Source: Candidatus Moraniibacteriota bacterium
Lineage (GTDB): Bacteria; Patescibacteriota; Minisyncoccia; Moranbacterales; UBA1568
Reading direction: 5' to 3'
DNA: 64,000 bases
Assembly: GCA_052034935.1 (NCBI GenBank)
Contig: JBPOIB010000006.1
Location: 537 to 64,536 of the forward strand
In this document: positions 612 to 44,884 of the stretch, piece by piece
Numbering within the stretch: the stretch's first letter is position 1
Layout of the letters: each line of letters opens with the position of its first letter
Notes under the pieces: generated by a model
The model's input: the letters and a program-made list of their open reading frames with translations, nothing else
The model's database searches: none
Told to the model about the DNA's origin: nothing
Position numbers and translations under genes: made by a program

Positions 612-1424
612 TCAGCCGCCGTCGTGCATGGCCGGATGGCCATGGTCGTGGCCATTGCCACGCGAACGCGGATCGCGCTCACGGCCACTGCCGGTGCGGC
701 GCGAGCGACCGGCGAGGGCAGCAGCGAGGAGGATCCCCAACCCGGGCGGCATGCCTTCCGGCAGACCATCTTCTTCTTCGGCGCCGAACAAGGCAGCCAG
801 CTCGGGCGGCATGCCCGGCGGCAGGCTGCTGCGTCGGCCCTGGCTCGCGCGTGACTGTTGCACCATGCCGACACAGCTGTTGATCAGGACGTGCAGCAAA
901 CGCATGCGCCGCGCATCGAGGGCACCGGTGCCACCGAGGATCATCTCCAGGACATGGCTTGTGTTGCGGATCTGTTGGCGGCCGTCACCTTCGTCCGGAC
1001 GCGCGAGGAGCGCTTCCAGCTTGGCGATCGTCCCCGGATCACCAGCGGTGCCGATCAGGTCGTCGGGATCGATGTACCAGCGGTCGGCCTCGGGCGCCGG
1101 CAGATCGCGGTACCACTGCAGCTGCTCGATGCCGGCACCCTGCTGAACGATGGTTTCGGGACCGACATGGCCGTACTGTCGGCCATCGTGATTGACGAAG
1201 GCCTCGGCATGGTCGTCCCAGCGCCAGGGACCCTTCGTGTCGCGCACGATGGACAGCGCTCCGACGGACTTCACCGAGAAGTCGAACCAGGTGCCGCCGC
1301 AGCTCGCGAGAACCAGGATCCGGTGGTTGCGATGCACCGGGCAATCGAGGTTGGTGATGGCGTCGCCCGGACGCAGATTCTGCATGATGCGGGAGAGACG
1401 GGCATGAGACTTGGGCTTGGGCAT
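612..1424 (-). CDS. Hypothetical protein in a high-GC pocket. The C-terminal region has tandem GMPP(E/G)L-type repeats.
   Basis: The ORF has balanced amino-acid composition (W/Y/K/N/F), unlike the D/G/R-rich opposite-strand ORF 858..1439. A GGAG lies 8 nt upstream of the ATG. The nucleotide motif cgggcggcatgcc is repeated in the 3' part. No recognisable domain. Confidence 0.45.
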   Translation of the reverse strand: MPKPKSHARLSRIMQNLRPGDAITNLDCPVHRNHRILVLASCGGTWFDFSVKSVGALSIVRDTKGPWRWDDHAEAFVNHDGRQYGHVGPETIVQQGAGIEQLQWYRDLPAPEADRWYIDPDDLIGTAGDPGTIAKLEALLARPDEGDGRQQIRNTSHVLEMILGGTGALDARRMRLLHVLINSCVGMVQQSRASQGRRSSLPPGMPPELAALFGAEEEDGLPEGMPPGLGILLAAALAGRSRRTGSGRERDPRSRGNGHDHGHPAMHDGG

Positions 1425-21190: not shown

Positions 21191-22447
21191 ATGCAAGACG
21201 CTGCTGAAAAATCACCTGAATTGAACGAATTTGACCATCGCCGCCTCGGAGCTGAGCTCGGACTTTTTACCTTTTCCGACTTGGTCGGCTCCGGCCTCCC
21301 GCTTTGGCTCCCTAAAGGCGCGACGGTGAGACGTATCCTCGAACGCTTCGTCGTCGATACCGAGATTGCTTGGGGCTATTCCCACGTCTACACTCCTGAC
21401 ATTGCCAAGCTTGACCTCTACAAAACTTCAGGCCACTACCCATACTACAAGGACTCGATGTACGCGCCGATCGAAATCGACGAGCACGAGTTCATGCTTC
21501 GGCCGATGACCTGCCCGCACCATTTTGAGCTCTACAAGACAAGGCCGAGAAGCTACCGGGAACTGCCGATGCGGATTGCTGAACTCGCCAAACTCTACCG
21601 CTATGAAGGCTCCGGCGAACTTTCCGGTCTTGTCCGCGTCCGCAGCTTCTGCCTCGCGGATGCCCACATAGTCTGCACAGACCGCGACCAGGCAGCGAGC
21701 GAGGTAGACCGTGCGCTCGACCTCATCGAACACATCGCGACTATTTTCGGGCTCAAGCTCGGCGAAAATTACTCATACCGGCTTTCCCTCGGTGATCGCA
21801 CCGACGACAAGAAATACTACAAGAATGATGCGGCCTGGGATGAGGGCGAAGTAATGCTCCGAGAAGTGCTCACGAAGCGCGGTGGCGCATTCGTCGAAGC
21901 GGTCGGTGAAGCTGCTTTCTATGGACCGAAAATCGACATCCAGATGGTCGACGCGCGAGGTAAAGAAAATACCGCCTTCACTGTCCAATACGACTTCTGC
22001 ATGCCGGACCGCTTCGATCTCGCCTACATCGCTCCTGATGGCACCGAAAAAAGACCGGTCGTCGTCCATCGTTCCTCGGTCGGTGCCATCGAGCGTGTTA
22101 TGGCTTTTCTTATCGAGCATTACAAAGGTGCTTTCCCTCTCTGGCTCGCACCCGTCCAAGTGAAGGTACTGCCAATCAGTGAAAAGCACTCCGATTATGC
22201 TGAATCAGTGGTAGCAGAGCTCCTGAAAGTGGGCATCCGGGCCGAGCTCGACCAAAGCGACGAGTCGCTCGGGAAAAAAGTCCGGAATGCAAAGACTGAG
22301 AAGATCCCCTACTTCGTCGTTCTCGGCGACCAGGAAGTCACGGCTGGTACGCTCAGCGTCGAGCACCGGGCTGAGGGAAAGATTGGTGCACTTTCGCTCC
22401 CCGCTTTTCTCGCTCGGCTTGCCGAAGAAGTCAGCCAAAAAAAGTAA
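21191..22447 (+). CDS. thrS: Threonyl-tRNA synthetase, catalytic core plus anticodon-binding domain only (no N-terminal TGS/editing region).
   Basis: Class II motifs: MLRPMTCPHH, RVRSFCLADAHIV, GAFYGPKID. 418 aa versus about 640 aa for canonical ThrRS. Confidence 0.85.
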   Translation: MQDAAEKSPELNEFDHRRLGAELGLFTFSDLVGSGLPLWLPKGATVRRILERFVVDTEIAWGYSHVYTPDIAKLDLYKTSGHYPYYKDSMYAPIEIDEHEFMLRPMTCPHHFELYKTRPRSYRELPMRIAELAKLYRYEGSGELSGLVRVRSFCLADAHIVCTDRDQAASEVDRALDLIEHIATIFGLKLGENYSYRLSLGDRTDDKKYYKNDAAWDEGEVMLREVLTKRGGAFVEAVGEAAFYGPKIDIQMVDARGKENTAFTVQYDFCMPDRFDLAYIAPDGTEKRPVVVHRSSVGAIERVMAFLIEHYKGAFPLWLAPVQVKVLPISEKHSDYAESVVAELLKVGIRAELDQSDESLGKKVRNAKTEKIPYFVVLGDQEVTAGTLSVEHRAEGKIGALSLPAFLARLAEEVSQKK

Positions 22448-28502: not shown

Positions 28503-28567
28503 AACGAGCCTATTGTAGCCATTCCGGCAGGCGAAGTCAAAGCTTCTCACGGGCCGCTCACCCAGCT

Positions 28568-29047
28568 ATGATGCAGAGAGAATCAGCTGTCATAACCTCC
28601 TCCTCTATGAAAATCCATGAACTTGGTCATGTTGTCCTCTATGTTTCTGACCTCGAACGCTCCCGCGCTTTCTACCGCGATACTCTCGGCTTCCCCGAGA
28701 TCGAAAGCGAGATGCGCGGCGGTGCCCTCTTCACTACCGGCCGCACCCACCATGAGCTGCTCCTCATCGAAATCGGCGGTATTCCCCGGCCCAAACATGT
28801 CCCGGAACCAGGTCTCTACCATATCGGACTGAAGATTGGGGATACCGATGAAGAGCTCCGCCAGGCACAGCAGGAACTCGAAAGAGCAGGTGTCACTATT
28901 GTCGGCACCGCCGATCACACCGTCACCCATAGCCTCTACATCCTCGATCCGGACAGCAATGAACTCGAGCTCTATGCTGATGTCTCCGATGTCTGGAAAA
29001 CCGATCCTTCCGCCGTTGCTCGCCCAACTCAGCATCTCGAACTGTAA
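28568..29047 (+). CDS. VOC-family protein (glyoxalase/bleomycin resistance/extradiol dioxygenase fold).
   Basis: HVVLYVSDLERSRAFYRDTLGF and HIGLKIGD motifs. Possible alternative start at MKIHELG (28607). Confidence 0.7.
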   Translation: MMQRESAVITSSSMKIHELGHVVLYVSDLERSRAFYRDTLGFPEIESEMRGGALFTTGRTHHELLLIEIGGIPRPKHVPEPGLYHIGLKIGDTDEELRQAQQELERAGVTIVGTADHTVTHSLYILDPDSNELELYADVSDVWKTDPSAVARPTQHLEL

Positions 29048-29339
29048 AAAAGTTTCATATAAAAATTGAAAGGCCCCAACGATGGATCTCGTGTGGGGCC
29101 AGTCTTGAATTCAACTGAGCGGGGCGAGGTTCTTGGAACCCCAGGACCGTGTCATTGAGTAGCCCGAGTAAGACTACTTTAAGTCGATGAAGGCTTACGC
29201 TCCTAGGAGGAACAACCTTTCTTCGAGCTCCGGATTAGTTGCGATCCGGGCGTTTGCTGGAACGGGAATAGACCATCCCTCTTCTCCTCAATGGTTGATG
29301 CGACGCTTGTTGCCGCGTTGTGATGACACAGGGTCACCG

Positions 29340-29573
29340 TCATGTGGGGCGCGCACGCTCCAGTGCCAGCATTCCGTGGGCCAGAACCACGTGCTCGACG
29401 ATGGCGACAGCGGGCGCGGCCGGAGCAGGACTCAGGAGCAGTCCTTCCCCTGGCAGCGCAGCCTGGCCGTCCGATCGGCGATCAACCGCGATCGACTCAT
29501 GCTGGGCGAATCTCGCCGAGAAGAGTACGAAAGCGACAGATGCCGCGACGGACAGGCAACGGGCGAGACTCAT
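29340..29573 (-). CDS. Small secreted protein (signal peptide), high GC.
   Basis: AGGAGG lies upstream of the ATG. N-terminus MSLARCLSVAASVAFVLFSA. Confidence 0.45.
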   Translation of the reverse strand: MSLARCLSVAASVAFVLFSARFAQHESIAVDRRSDGQAALPGEGLLLSPAPAAPAVAIVEHVVLAHGMLALERARPT

Positions 29574-29667
29574 GGGCCTCCTTTCTCTTACGCGGGCCCA
29601 ATCACGAGCGATGTTTTCCGTCAGTCAGACCGACGGAGCATCTCGCAAGTGAACGACCCAGCCGCCG

Positions 29668-29943
29668 CACGTTCAGGCCTGGAAGGCCATCGGCACAGCG
29701 TTGGCCACCAGGCTGCCCAGCACCAGCGTGGTGCCGGCGCCGATGCGGCCGTTCTTGACGTCGAACGTGATGACCAGCGCGCCGAAGTGGTTCTTGGCGG
29801 CGACGTGGTTCACAGCAGCAGGTCCTTCTCGAAGTTGCGCAGGCCCGCGGTCTTGGTGGGGCTGGCGCTCGGGCTCGTCGCGACCAGCGCGGTGGCGATG
29901 CCCAGCTTTGCGTGGGAACGGTTCAGGTTCGGGGGGTCGTGCA
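29668..29943 (-). pseudogene. Frameshifted paralog of the small secreted protein at 30390..30746.
   Basis: N-terminus MHDPPNLNRSHAKLGIATALVATSPSAS is homologous to MNRSRSHVSLAALSALCLAASAS. The frame ends at 29810, and the homologous sequence continues in the +1 frame to about 29668. Confidence 0.4.
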
Positions 29944-30137
29944 TGGATTGCTCCAGGTTGGTTGCAGGAAATCCCGACGCTATCATCACGAGGATGCGAG
30001 CGGACGGGCAGCTATCGCTTTCAAAGAAAGCAACACTTGTCCGTCCACTCAAATATGTATTGCAGAGATAAAAAGAACTTGATTCGGATAGTAGCAAAGA
30101 TGCATTTACCGTTCAAGTCGTTTTGACTTGAAAAAAG

Positions 30138-30166
30138 AAAATATCACGTACGACCAAATCTGTCAA
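30138..30166 (-). promoter_or_regulatory. Sigma-70-like promoter (copy A) driving the 29943 paralog.
   Basis: Minus strand reads TTGACA, a 17-nt spacer, then TATTTT. Lies within a ~110-nt AT-rich block duplicated at 30870..30985. Confidence 0.4.
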
Positions 30167-30389
30167 TATAAAGGTCGGATGCGCTGTAAAAAAATGACGC
30201 CCCGGAACCGCAATGGATCCCGGGGCAATCAGCCGGTCGCCGCTACCTGGCAGGAGACGATCGTCTTCGATGCCGGTGGGCTTTCTGGCTGGCGTAGCGC
30301 TGTGCAGTCATGAGTGAAAACCTCCTTCGGGGTTGTGGGTCAGCTCGCTGACCCAGGGTTGACTTGGCGTCGAGCCGGCGCGGCAGCGT

Positions 30390-30746
30390 CTACTGCAGGT
30401 AGGCCTGGCGTCCCGCGGCGGCCACCAGCGCGGCGTTCAGGCCGATGCCCGCGTCGTCGTGCTTGCCAGCGCCCAGGTCGCAGTCGCCGTCGATCTCGTC
30501 GCTCTTGCGCACGCCGCTGAAGCTGCTGATGATCGCCGCCTTGGCCATCGTGCCGGCACCCACCGCGCTCTGCATGCCGCCGTCGCTGATGTAGCTGTTG
30601 CCGCTCTTGACCATCGGATCGATGCCGGCCGGGTCGTTCATGTCGACGAAACGGGTGTTCTTCAGCGCGGCCGAGGGCGAGGCGGAAGCGGCCAGGCACA
30701 GGGCGGACAGGGCCGCCAGGGAAACGTGGGAACGGGAACGGTTCAT
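30390..30746 (-). CDS. Small secreted protein (signal peptide; Gly/Ala/Asp-rich mature part), high GC.
   Basis: AAGGAGAG lies upstream of the ATG. Signal peptide MNRSRSHVSLAALSALCLAASASPSAA. Confidence 0.5.
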   Translation of the reverse strand: MNRSRSHVSLAALSALCLAASASPSAALKNTRFVDMNDPAGIDPMVKSGNSYISDGGMQSAVGAGTMAKAAIISSFSGVRKSDEIDGDCDLGAGKHDDAGIGLNAALVAAAGRQAYLQ

Positions 30747-30951
30747 GGGAGCTCTCCTTGGGGAGTGGTGCGCTCTGCAGGCGCAGGAATCATCCGTCAC
30801 GAGTACGGATGGCAGACACTATCGCTCAAGCTTTCTCGCGACACTGTCTGCCACGCGTCTTCGTGGTTCTCATACACACATAAAAAGGAACTTGATTCAG
30901 ATACTAACAAAGATGCCAGCACTGTTCAAGCTTTAAAAAACTTGAAAAAAG

Positions 30952-30980
30952 AGTATAGCACGTTAAACTACCCCTGTCAA
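30952..30980 (-). promoter_or_regulatory. Consensus sigma-70-like promoter (copy B), followed by a ~200-nt leader.
   Basis: Minus strand reads TTGACA, spacer ggggtagtttaacgtgc (17 nt), then TATACT. Confidence 0.5.
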
Positions 30981-31014
30981 TGGTCGACGATGGCTTGTTT
31001 TAGCGCTCTTATAG

Positions 31015-32034
31015 CTAGACGATATCCTTTAGGATACTCTCATAGTCCCCGATTTCGAGGAGAAGCATCAGGACTTTGGCCAGCTTTTTCGAGTCATGCC
31101 GGATGAAGGCGCGGGTCGCTGCGATTTTATCCTCACGCCGGCGGACGATTCGTTCCTCACTGAGAAGGTCAGCCTGGATGACGCGATATGACCGCGGCTT
31201 TTCAGTACGGAGAAATGGGACGATATTCCCCTCTGCAGCGTATTTTTTCAAGAGATGCTTCGGCGGGAGTACGGTATTGTACGTCACGAAGTCAATCCGC
31301 TCACTCCCAATGAGGTGATTGATTGCACCCACATAATCCTCGAGTGTGAAGCTATCTGTCTGGCCGTGTTTGCTGACGAGGTTGCAGTTATAAACCACTT
31401 TCGCCTTCGTCCTCCGCAAAGCTTCGGCAATGCCCGGAACGAGGAAATTTGGAATAATACCGCAGTAATGACTCCCCGGCCCGATAATGACGAGGTCGGC
31501 ATCGAGGATTCGCCTCACCGCGAGCGGATTCGCCTTCGGTTTCGGCTTGAGGGATACTTTTTTTACGCCGACTTTCTCGAATTTCGTATTCACGTTGATC
31601 TCGTGTTCACCAGCGAGGAGCTTGCCATTGGCAAGCTCCATATAGAGACGCGTATCGGAGAGCGTCACCGGAATCACTTCACCCCGTACATTCAGAATCT
31701 GGGAGGCCTCCTTTACTCCGGCACCAAAGTTTCCAGTGATCTTTTCGAGCGCGGAAAGGAGAATATTACCGAAACTGTGGCCCTCGAGACCACCATTGGT
31801 AAAGCGATAGTTCATGAGTTGTCGCAACATGTCTGGCGTCTCAGAAAGTGCGACGAGACACTGTCGAACATCGCCCGGCGGTAAAACGCCGAGTTCATCG
31901 CGTAAGACTCCGGTGGAACCACCATCATCGGCCATCGACACAATCGCCGAGATCTCGATTGGATATTCCTTTAAACCAGAAAGGAGCATGAAGCTCCCCG
32001 TTCCACCGCCGATCGTAACAACCTTCTTTTTCAT
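31015..32034 (-). CDS. yvcK: YvcK / gluconeogenesis-factor family protein (UPF0052, CofD-like fold).
   Basis: MKKKVVTIGGGTGSF and SMADDGGSTG motifs. Confidence 0.75.
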   Translation of the reverse strand: MKKKVVTIGGGTGSFMLLSGLKEYPIEISAIVSMADDGGSTGVLRDELGVLPPGDVRQCLVALSETPDMLRQLMNYRFTNGGLEGHSFGNILLSALEKITGNFGAGVKEASQILNVRGEVIPVTLSDTRLYMELANGKLLAGEHEINVNTKFEKVGVKKVSLKPKPKANPLAVRRILDADLVIIGPGSHYCGIIPNFLVPGIAEALRRTKAKVVYNCNLVSKHGQTDSFTLEDYVGAINHLIGSERIDFVTYNTVLPPKHLLKKYAAEGNIVPFLRTEKPRSYRVIQADLLSEERIVRRREDKIAATRAFIRHDSKKLAKVLMLLLEIGDYESILKDIV

Positions 32035-44441: not shown

Positions 44442-44699
44442 TCAGCGGCGCTGACTGGTCGGACTTGGGAGACCGAGCACCTGAGCATCGACATCGTCGT
44501 CACCGTAGAGGTAGTCCTCTGACTCCTTCTTGACGACACGCTTGTAGGCGCGCTGCGCTGCGAACATCGCTCGAGCTTGGCGCGACCAGGGTACCCGACG
44601 GAACATCCGCCACGAAGCCCAGGCGAAAACAAGTATGCCGAGTGCAATCCAGAACAAGATGCCCGAGTATTGGAAAAACGTACGGAGATCGTCGGTCAT
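44442..44699 (-). CDS. Small membrane protein (1 TM).
   Basis: ILFWIALGILVFAWASW hydrophobic helix. Confidence 0.4.
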   Translation of the reverse strand: MTDDLRTFFQYSGILFWIALGILVFAWASWRMFRRVPWSRQARAMFAAQRAYKRVVKKESEDYLYGDDDVDAQVLGLPSPTSQRR

Positions 44700-44884
44700 G
44701 TAACCCTCTCAAGTTGCGGTTTGGTTGTGGGCAAAGGAACAAATACGACTAGAAGAGTATAGCATGAAAAACTACTGTTGTCAATCATCGGCTTTATACT
44801 CACTCCCCTTGATAAATCAGGCTGATATGCTACAGTAGCGATGCCTTCAACGAGGCTTTTTTTGTCGAAAAAGCAGAACTGAAT

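Follow-up and report, generated by a model that had tools for sequence, protein, structure and literature searches.

We analyzed a 64,000-nt stretch of contig JBPOIB010000006.1 from a Candidatus Moraniibacteriota bacterium (positions 537 to 64,536; hereafter the window) and describe a small island on its minus strand. The island (31010-29060) sits between a CofD/YvcK-like gene (31015-32034, minus strand) and a glyoxalase gene (28568-29047, plus strand), and consists of two tandem transcription units, A and then B, each with its own promoter and terminator. In each unit, a TTGACA-17-TATNNT promoter with an extended -10 element is followed by a leader of ~200 nt with two structured modules, and the leader is followed by open reading frames (ORFs) of high GC content (Table 1). 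The same island occupies the same CofD-glyoxalase slot in a series of related loci (L001-L005 and L012-L023), and a reduced form of it is present in L024-L026; more than 10 independent assemblies contain it. Taken together, the data describe a conserved, lineage-restricted island whose proteins are orphans, whose structured leader is new, and whose codon usage is unusual.

Table 1. Features of the two transcription units, in the order of transcription. Positions are those of the window. SD, Shine-Dalgarno sequence; GC3, GC content at third codon positions; dN/dS, ratio of nonsynonymous to synonymous substitution rates; R1 and R2, covariance models of leader modules 1 and 2.
Feature	Unit	Position	Strand	Description
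Promoter A	A	30952..30980	-	-35 TTGACA, 17-nt spacer, TG-extended -10 TATACT; score 11/12 with TG
Leader A module 1	A	30874..30952	-	Two predicted hairpins (P1 UUCAAG/CUUGAA near the presumed 5' end, then P2), then conserved single-stranded GAAUCAAGUUC; R1 91 bits
Leader A module 2	A	30805..30859	-	Long imperfect hairpin (predicted) with conserved GUG/UAG internal region, inverted repeat; R2 43.9 bits
Gene 1	A	30390..30746	-	118-residue orphan, predicted Sec-type signal peptide (MNRSRSH / VSLAALSALCLAA / SASPSAA); SD AAGGAG at 30759-30754
Mini-ORF 1	A	30243..30311	-	22 residues, MTAQRYASQKAHRHRRRSSPAR; strong SD GAAGGAGG; ends 16 nt before terminator A
Intrinsic terminator	A	30188..30227	-	12-bp stem, 8 GC pairs, T7 run
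Promoter B	B	30138..30166	-	TTGACA-17-TG-TATTTT
Leader B module 1	B	30062..30138	-	Paralogue of leader A module 1; R1 88.3 bits
Leader B module 2	B	29996..30052	-	Hairpin (predicted); R2 71 bits
Gene 2a	B	29810..29944	-	44-residue ORF, GC3 0.93; conserved parts are N-terminal HDPPN and C-terminal FEKDLLL
Gene 2b	B	29673..29813	-	46-residue ORF, GTG start overlapping the 2a stop (GTGA), GC3 0.96-0.98; NHFGALVITFDVKNGRIGAGT
Gene 3	B	29340..29573	-	77-residue ORF, N-terminal hydrophobic segment; SD AAAGGAGG; GC3 0.68, dN/dS 0.5-0.7
Mini-ORF 2	B	29235..29276	-	13 residues, SD GAGGAG, in the 3' tail of the unit
Terminator-like hairpin	B	29061..29100	-	GGCCCCA...TGGGGCC plus T-rich run, read directly from the sequence

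Promoters and structured leaders

An earlier reading of this region, made from its letters alone (the original prediction), had described small minus-strand genes of ~65% GC with ribosome-binding sites (RBS), preceded by duplicated consensus promoters and long leaders. Both the composition and the RBS are borne out. The island ORFs are 65-70% GC (coding GC ~0.65-0.70), compared with ~40% for the two blocks upstream of them and an average of ~52% for the window, and the ORFs of 118, 44 plus 46, and 77 residues each lie behind an SD-like GGAG. The proposed promoters, TTGACA-17-TATACT and TTGACA-17-TATTTT, were both found, and both also have the TG of an extended -10 element. Among 13 distinct orthologous or paralogous promoters the TTGACA is invariant and the spacer to TATNNT is always 17 nt, while the letters of the spacer drift freely. 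TTGACA-N17-TATNNT occurs at 3 sites in the 64 kb, where 0.05 would be expected, and promoters A and B account for 2 of the 3 and appear to be among the three strongest promoters of the window. The third site, at 44756-44784 on the minus strand, is 82% identical to promoter A over 33 nt, part of the spacer included, and precedes an ORF (44442-44699, minus strand) for an 85-residue membrane-looking orphan (MTDDLRTFFQYSGILFWIALGILVF...) that has its own terminator.

The two AT-rich upstream blocks (30070-30167 and 30883-30981) are alike, as had been claimed by eye. Direct repeats spaced 813-814 nt apart pair 30070-30117 with 30883-30930 (81% identity) and 30126-30167 with 30940-30981 (76%), and a blastn comparison of the blocks within the window gave 74.8% identity over 103 nt (E=2.8e-11). 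The duplication of promoter and leader thus holds on alignment and is real. Across lineages, the A-type leaders group with one another and the B-type leaders likewise, as two sets of orthologues, and therefore the duplication is older than these lineages. A third collinear match, of 25 nt at 76%, lies at the ORF starts of gene 1 and gene 2a and suggests that the old duplication extended into the start of the ORF. The original prediction had extended the homology of these starts to the proteins; the DNA match stands, but the protein paralogy is weak, since gene 1 and 2a+2b gave no BLASTP match at E<=100. A permissive search, with composition correction off and a tiny database, aligned them at 44% over 32 N-terminal residues.

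The leaders were described by two covariance models, R1 for module 1 (79 nt) and R2 for module 2, and the covariation rests on ~17 distinct sequences, all from one narrow lineage. In module 1, 97.9% of cells are paired, compared with 22-46% when the partners are slid, and compensatory changes on both sides are seen at 3 pairs. In module 2, 90.5% of cells are paired and 7 of the 15 pairs have changed on both sides. Folding compared with shuffled sequences gave z=-6.3 for leader A and z=-4.7 for leader B, so that the claim of conserved, structured leaders is supported by folding and by covariation in both modules. The inverted repeat TTCAAG/CTTGAA noticed earlier is present in both, with a spacing of N10 in copy A and N9 in copy B. 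P1 starts 8 nt past the -10 hexamer and would therefore lie at, or 1-2 nt from, a typically placed start site. A K-turn or loop-E motif in module 2 was rejected on inspection because the tandem G·A pairs are absent, and UTP-sensitive reiterative transcription at a T6 run was rejected as well, since the run is not kept among relatives (GCTCCTTC in L003).

R1 has two copies in each full locus, one in the reduced slot of L025/L026, and none in L024, and within the window it matched nothing beyond the two island copies; module 2 was also found in the distant L024 and L025 units. Rfam 15 at gathering score identified only tRNAs across the window, and a search of 29000-31200 at E<=10 returned just two chance-level matches (E>=1). 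The two-module 5' leader would accordingly count as a new RNA with nothing comparable in Rfam. Searching GTDB genome contigs and JGI metagenome contigs with the leader pattern gave chance matches only, in AT-rich unrelated DNA, and a relaxed pattern gave 105 matches in viral contigs, where 0 of the 80 loci examined fit R1. At the other end of the units, the terminator-like hairpin of unit B was missed by the terminator scan because its loop exceeds 8 nt; it is conserved in L001, L003, L004, and L016.

Genes of the two units

Gene 1 clearly appears to carry a classical Sec-type signal peptide. This was judged by inspection of an alignment for a charged n-region, a hydrophobic h-region of 10-15 residues, and an AXA signal peptidase I (SPase I) site at -3/-1, and the pattern is kept in 7 of 7 members of the family: M(N/K)(R/K)xRS, then LAALASVMLSS or LLALMAIAPLS, then ASA, ANA, ALA, or AQA. 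The Cys in the window's copy is not conserved and there is no lipobox. The GC contents at the three codon positions are 0.62, 0.52, and 0.92. Two close relatives of gene 1 were found among 5.8 billion clustered proteins, and a profile search of all 1.84 billion representatives yielded 6 clusters in total, of 104-123 residues. Every gene 1 cluster with a readable context sits directly downstream of CofD (L001-L005, L012-L022). Searches of protein databases revealed no homologue of the island proteins outside this slot and lineage. As the original prediction had stated, they have no recognisable domain: there was no match in Pfam, NCBIfam, PHROGs, or PADLOC, nor in the PDB by profile search.

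The region of 2a and 2b had been taken for a single frameshifted gene, a secreted paralogue of gene 1, and this part of the prediction fails. The split into two ORFs with a 4-nt GTGA overlap is kept in L001, L003, L004, L005, L016-18, and L023, as well as at a contig-truncated junction in L012, that is, in every related assembly examined and across lineages whose cofD genes differ by ~4-20%. A frameshifted pseudogene or a sequencing error was therefore rejected; no orthologue restores a single ORF. Nor is there a slippery heptamer for a programmed -1 frameshift at the junction (GAC CUG CUG CUG UGA / GUG AAC). Across lineages 2a is conserved only at its N-terminal HDPPN and at its C-terminal (F/C)(E/K)KDLLL, and the latter motif encodes an SD-like AAGGA 9 nt before the GUG of 2b, from which we infer translational coupling or reinitiation between 2a and 2b. 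The 2b protein is the best conserved of the island (75-93% nucleotide identity), and two homologues of it, P0032 and P0033, were found. The 2a orthologues have Asp and polar residues in the putative hydrophobic core (AKLAAVTTDACPS in L016, LGITVADVCPS in L023), the N-terminus of the L003 copy is unrelated, and no uninterrupted hydrophobic core of a Sec signal peptide is conserved among them. With 2b also devoid of an N-terminal signal, only part of the claim of three signal-peptide proteins survives: the signal is clear in gene 1 and probable in gene 3.

In gene 3 the N-terminal hydrophobic segment is probably a signal peptide or a membrane anchor. Each unit ends in a mini-ORF. An SD-led, basic or Pro-rich ORF of 17-22 residues occupies the position of mini-ORF 1 in all lineages, and the KAHRHRR motif shared by the window and L024 is kept through synonymous changes; in other lineages an SD-led short ORF with an FHCRDP motif follows gene 3. 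In the window, L001, L003, L012, L013, L016, L023, L024, and L025, mini-ORFs of 7-22 residues with a strong SD end each unit just before the terminator. Basic and often Pro-rich in composition (RGPCPP, QGPQPPP, HPP-stop), these may be genuine micro-proteins or else 3' elements coupled to translation. The untranslated tail of ~240 nt between gene 3 and the terminator (29100-29339, minus strand) is 96% identical in L001 and has no Rfam match; in L003, L004, and L016 it reaches up to ~450 nt and can hardly be aligned at all. At 30744-30760, 29942-29957, and 29571-29585, and in the orthologues, the SD repeatedly has its own complement behind it, just ahead of the start codon (AAGGAGAGCUCCCAUG, AAGGAGUGCUCCAUG, GGAGGCUCCAUG), and the two could form a small SD-sequestering hairpin.

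The coding status of these ORFs bears on the view that they are artefacts of GC richness, in stretches that would be non-coding RNA or assembly chimeras. In its favor, high GC opens ORFs in several frames and substitutions are spread evenly over the codon positions. The even spread, however, arises because the codon bias leaves few synonymous options. The GC3 of 0.92-0.98 in genes 1, 2a, and 2b is specific to the frame, an SD precedes each ORF, the same junctions recur in the independent assemblies, and ~11 indels inside island ORFs are all multiples of 3 whereas intergenic indels are not. We consider that this view can hardly be right. The opposite-strand ORF at 29187-30071, which the original prediction had named as the competing gene, lacks both an RBS and GC3 periodicity, as does a second one at 30459-31106, and their homologous pieces in relatives lie in different frames; 29187-30071 is not the genuine gene.

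Codon usage, divergence and allele exchange

The island genes differ from their neighbors in codon preference, beyond merely having a higher GC content. In the island genes leucine is encoded by CTG in 20 of 20 cases in the window and in about 130 of 150 across lineages, whereas the flanking genes use CTC for about 50-57% of their leucines and CTG for ~14%. GAC, AAC, and AAG are used almost exclusively in the island; the flanks prefer GAT and AAT and use AAA and AAG near-evenly. GC3 is 0.94 in the island and 0.63 in the flanks, and it ranges from 0.87 to 0.98 in island genes across lineages (gene 3, with 0.68, is lower). The signature is kept in all lineages even though the synonymous sites of the flanking genes are near saturation. 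Elsewhere in the window, a high-GC orphan ORF (612-1424, minus strand; 270 residues) has an intermediate codon usage that falls short of the extreme island type (GC3 0.79, CTG 13 and CTC 10); it has a TTGACA promoter-like site near 1515 and no Pfam or NCBIfam match.

The island proteins diverge much faster than those around them. Gene 1 proteins are 32-86% identical where the CofD protein stays at 90-99%, and the flanking genes have dN/dS values of 0.02-0.16 with dS up to saturation. By the method of Nei and Gojobori (NG86), dN/dS is 1.2-3.8 for genes 1, 2a, and 2b, but values above 1 are inflated by the extreme codon bias. Where a residue is conserved, its codon is also the same in 73-96% of cases, close to the 71-77% expected from the island's own bias. 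RNA-level constraint or a recent origin was rejected as the main cause of the low dS, the same-codon fraction (0.73-0.96) being near that given by bias (0.71-0.77).

Alleles move between lineages by recombination. The window strain and L004 have 0 mismatches in 1074 positions from gene 1 to gene 2b, and elsewhere they differ at 34 of 1020 positions in cofD, 16 of 771 in the NAD-binding gene, and 15 of 233 in gene 3. The identity rankings of cofD, gene 1, gene 2b, and the two leaders are incongruent. In L004 the 3' end of gene 3 resembles the L001 allele, forming a mosaic junction, and the glyoxalase gene is missing between the island and the NAD-binding gene (2750-3060 in L004, corresponding to 28560-29300 in the window).

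The CofD homologues that are 77-82% identical to that of the window are named Candidatus Moranbacteria or Moraniibacteriota, which points to Candidatus Moranbacteria as the closest named relatives; a search for contigs encoding the window's CofD protein itself gave no match. The content of the slot varies among relatives. An extra gene for a secreted-looking protein of 200 residues lies inside it in L013 and L016-18, and a DUF1328 gene lies inside it in L012. The leader of the extra gene (L016 6630-6800, also in L013/L014) has no module 1 by R1, and its hairpin (CAGGCAGUAUGA...CAUAGUGCCUG) is module 2-like by eye and was not detected by R2. In more distant relatives, whose CofD is 87% and 80% identical, only one or two leader-driven units fill the slot, with ORFs of 55-57 residues that share the HDPP/GPP N-terminus of 2a. 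L023 (GCA_041730415.1, JBGSBW010000003.1) was reached through homology to gene 2b. Its contig shows synteny with the window across RecG, iPGM, RNase Y, HU, CofD, and the island, and belongs to a metagenome-assembled genome labelled Undibacterium sp. in NCBI; the gene content is Moranbacteria-like, and the contig is probably mis-binned. One sample among the related loci, SRR10961543, is an activated-sludge metagenome (PMC7387413).

Possible origin and function of the island

We favor, at about even chances, the reading that the locus is a lineage-specific, recombination-shuffled, high-expression island for variable secreted or small proteins in a Candidatus Moranbacteria-like genome of the Candidate Phyla Radiation (CPR). 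An old duplication would have given rise to two cassettes, each with a near-consensus, extended -10 sigma-70 promoter and a structured leader in which a pair of hairpins near the 5' end, a conserved single-stranded stretch, and a long imperfect hairpin follow one another. Each cassette would drive its own terminated unit, one with the Sec-secreted orphan and the 22-residue SD-led mini-ORF, the other with coupled 2a and 2b, the 77-residue protein (probably with a signal peptide or a membrane anchor), and a second mini-ORF. Expression from both would be strong, and the 5' hairpin and the GC-rich body may stabilise the mRNA in an organism whose window includes a gene for RNase Y. The products would be secreted or displayed at the surface, and the selection on them would be diversifying or relaxed, as might be expected for the factors by which an episymbiont interacts with its host or neighbors.

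Two kinds of known system resemble this picture. Long structured 5' untranslated regions stabilise the mRNA of highly expressed genes for secreted or surface proteins (E. coli ompA, B. subtilis aprE, and the Lactobacillus S-layer gene slpA), and it is from these that we infer a stabilising role for the island leaders. Like them, the island leaders combine an apparently strong promoter, a length of ~100-200 nt that would start in a hairpin, and a strong SD ahead of a gene that encodes a predicted signal peptide, and the organism encodes RNase Y. Unlike them, the island leader is duplicated, serves tiny orphan ORFs, and adds a covarying second hairpin and a conserved single-stranded box; neither sequence nor Rfam links it to them. 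Loci for surface or secreted proteins that are hypervariable and shuffled by recombination, such as pilin or antigen loci, also occupy a fixed chromosomal slot, and the island shares with them conserved flanks, divergent alleles, incongruent genealogies, and identical alleles in one strain pair despite diverged flanks. It differs in having no silent cassettes, repeats, or invertases, in encoding orphans of 44-118 residues, and in its foreign codon usage.

Several points weigh against the island as we read it. The proteins evolve fast, but measured against flanking dS positive selection is not demonstrable. The AlphaFold2 model of gene 1, built from the 7-sequence alignment, has a mean predicted local distance difference test (pLDDT) score of 47 and is uninformative, and therefore the fold tells no function. 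Neither 2a nor 2b has a secretion signal, and the role of the leader as a stabiliser rather than a regulator is drawn by analogy. Finally, the persistence of a GC3 of ~0.94 and of near-exclusive CTG is left unaccounted for. A recombination hotspot with GC-biased gene conversion could account for a raised GC3, yet it leaves the choice of CTG over CTC unexplained.

The foreign codon usage (all leucines CTG against 57% CTC and 14% CTG in the flanks, GC3 0.94 against 0.63) and the variable content of the slot, with its 200-residue and DUF1328 genes, are what an ordinary horizontally acquired island would present, in which high-GC genes of a Proteobacteria- or Actinobacteria-like donor drift as accessory genes behind resident promoters. 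We regard this as unlikely, though not far-fetched. No donor was found, the 6 clusters among 1.84 billion representatives lie in the same slot wherever the context can be read, and the island, with both types of leader, occurs in every lineage despite near-saturated flanking synonymous sites; a neutral foreign codon usage should by then have drifted toward that of the host. No integrase and no flanking direct repeats were found, and no tRNA lies at the junction. The DUF1328 gene of L012 was rejected as a sign of a proteobacterial donor because a DUF1328 gene also occurs outside the slot in L025/L026, between the glyoxalase and NAD-binding genes. A further alternative concerns the leaders, which could be ligand- or protein-responsive regulators (a riboswitch, an attenuator, or an sRNA target) that switch the island on only under certain conditions. 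Besides the structure, the unpaired stretches (UAUCNGAA..GUUC) are strongly conserved, GAAC/GUUC and CUUGA/UCAAG could pair in competition with P1/P2, and the UUCCUU stretch of A-type leaders is complementary to the SD. However, B-type leaders of L012, L014, and L016 do not keep the U-run that follows module 1, the terminator scan called no terminator inside the leaders, no Rfam family matches even at E<=10, and the ~17 sequences of one narrow lineage are too few for covariation to resolve alternative folds. We find this quite unlikely, and the attenuator or riboswitch label of the original prediction was not retained.

The order of genes in unit B, where two adjacent ORFs of ~45 residues precede one for a small protein whose N-terminus is hydrophobic, recalls class IIb two-peptide bacteriocin operons, which are likewise compact and have their own promoter and terminator. 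In a bacteriocin or toxin-immunity cluster, 2a and 2b would be the two-peptide toxin, gene 3 a membrane immunity protein, and gene 1 a secreted accessory protein or toxin, and fast protein evolution, allele exchange, and strong promoters would fit. Yet neither 2a nor 2b has a double-glycine or other recognisable leader, and the island has neither the ABC transporter nor the C39 peptidase of such operons. No transporter, peptidase, or modification gene lies nearby (the neighbors are CofD, HU, glyoxalase, and an FNR-like gene), there is no Pfam, NCBIfam, PADLOC, or PHROGs match, the two ORFs meet in a GTGA overlap, and conservation of the 2a sequence is largely confined to the part that encodes the SD for 2b. 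This alternative seems to us improbable. With respect to the codon signature, the synonymous sites of the favored secreted-protein island may be held by selection, either through tRNA gating of the bldA kind or for mRNA stability or structure, as in an unusually nuclease-resistant, GC-rich message, so that leader and codons together would make up an expression system devoted to variable secreted proteins of CPR bacteria; we put this forward as a speculation with a small chance of being right. In Streptomyces, bldA/TTA-type codon gating controls expression, and there too a small gene set is marked by its choice of leucine codon (here CTG against the genome's CTC). The analogy is limited in that CTG is not rare, with 14% of flank leucines, and in that all amino acids of the island, beyond Leu, shift to G- or C-ending codons; the window itself contains no tRNA-Leu gene.

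Moranbacteria and other CPR bacteria are believed to live on the surface of other cells or to depend on them, and to our knowledge almost nothing is known about the molecules that they display or secrete. The island offers concrete candidates for such proteins, which are small, fast-evolving, and exchanged, and one of which clearly appears to have a secretion signal. The covarying leader RNA provides a handle for searches in further genomes, and the persistence of a foreign codon usage in one set of genes, well past the point at which neutral drift should have removed it, bears on the selection of synonymous sites in small genomes. Elsewhere in the window, the threonyl-tRNA synthetase (21191-22447, plus strand) has 418 residues and matches its model from position 167 on, with the N-terminal domains missing. 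This shortened enzyme and the many orphan proteins in the window are consistent with a reduced CPR genome.

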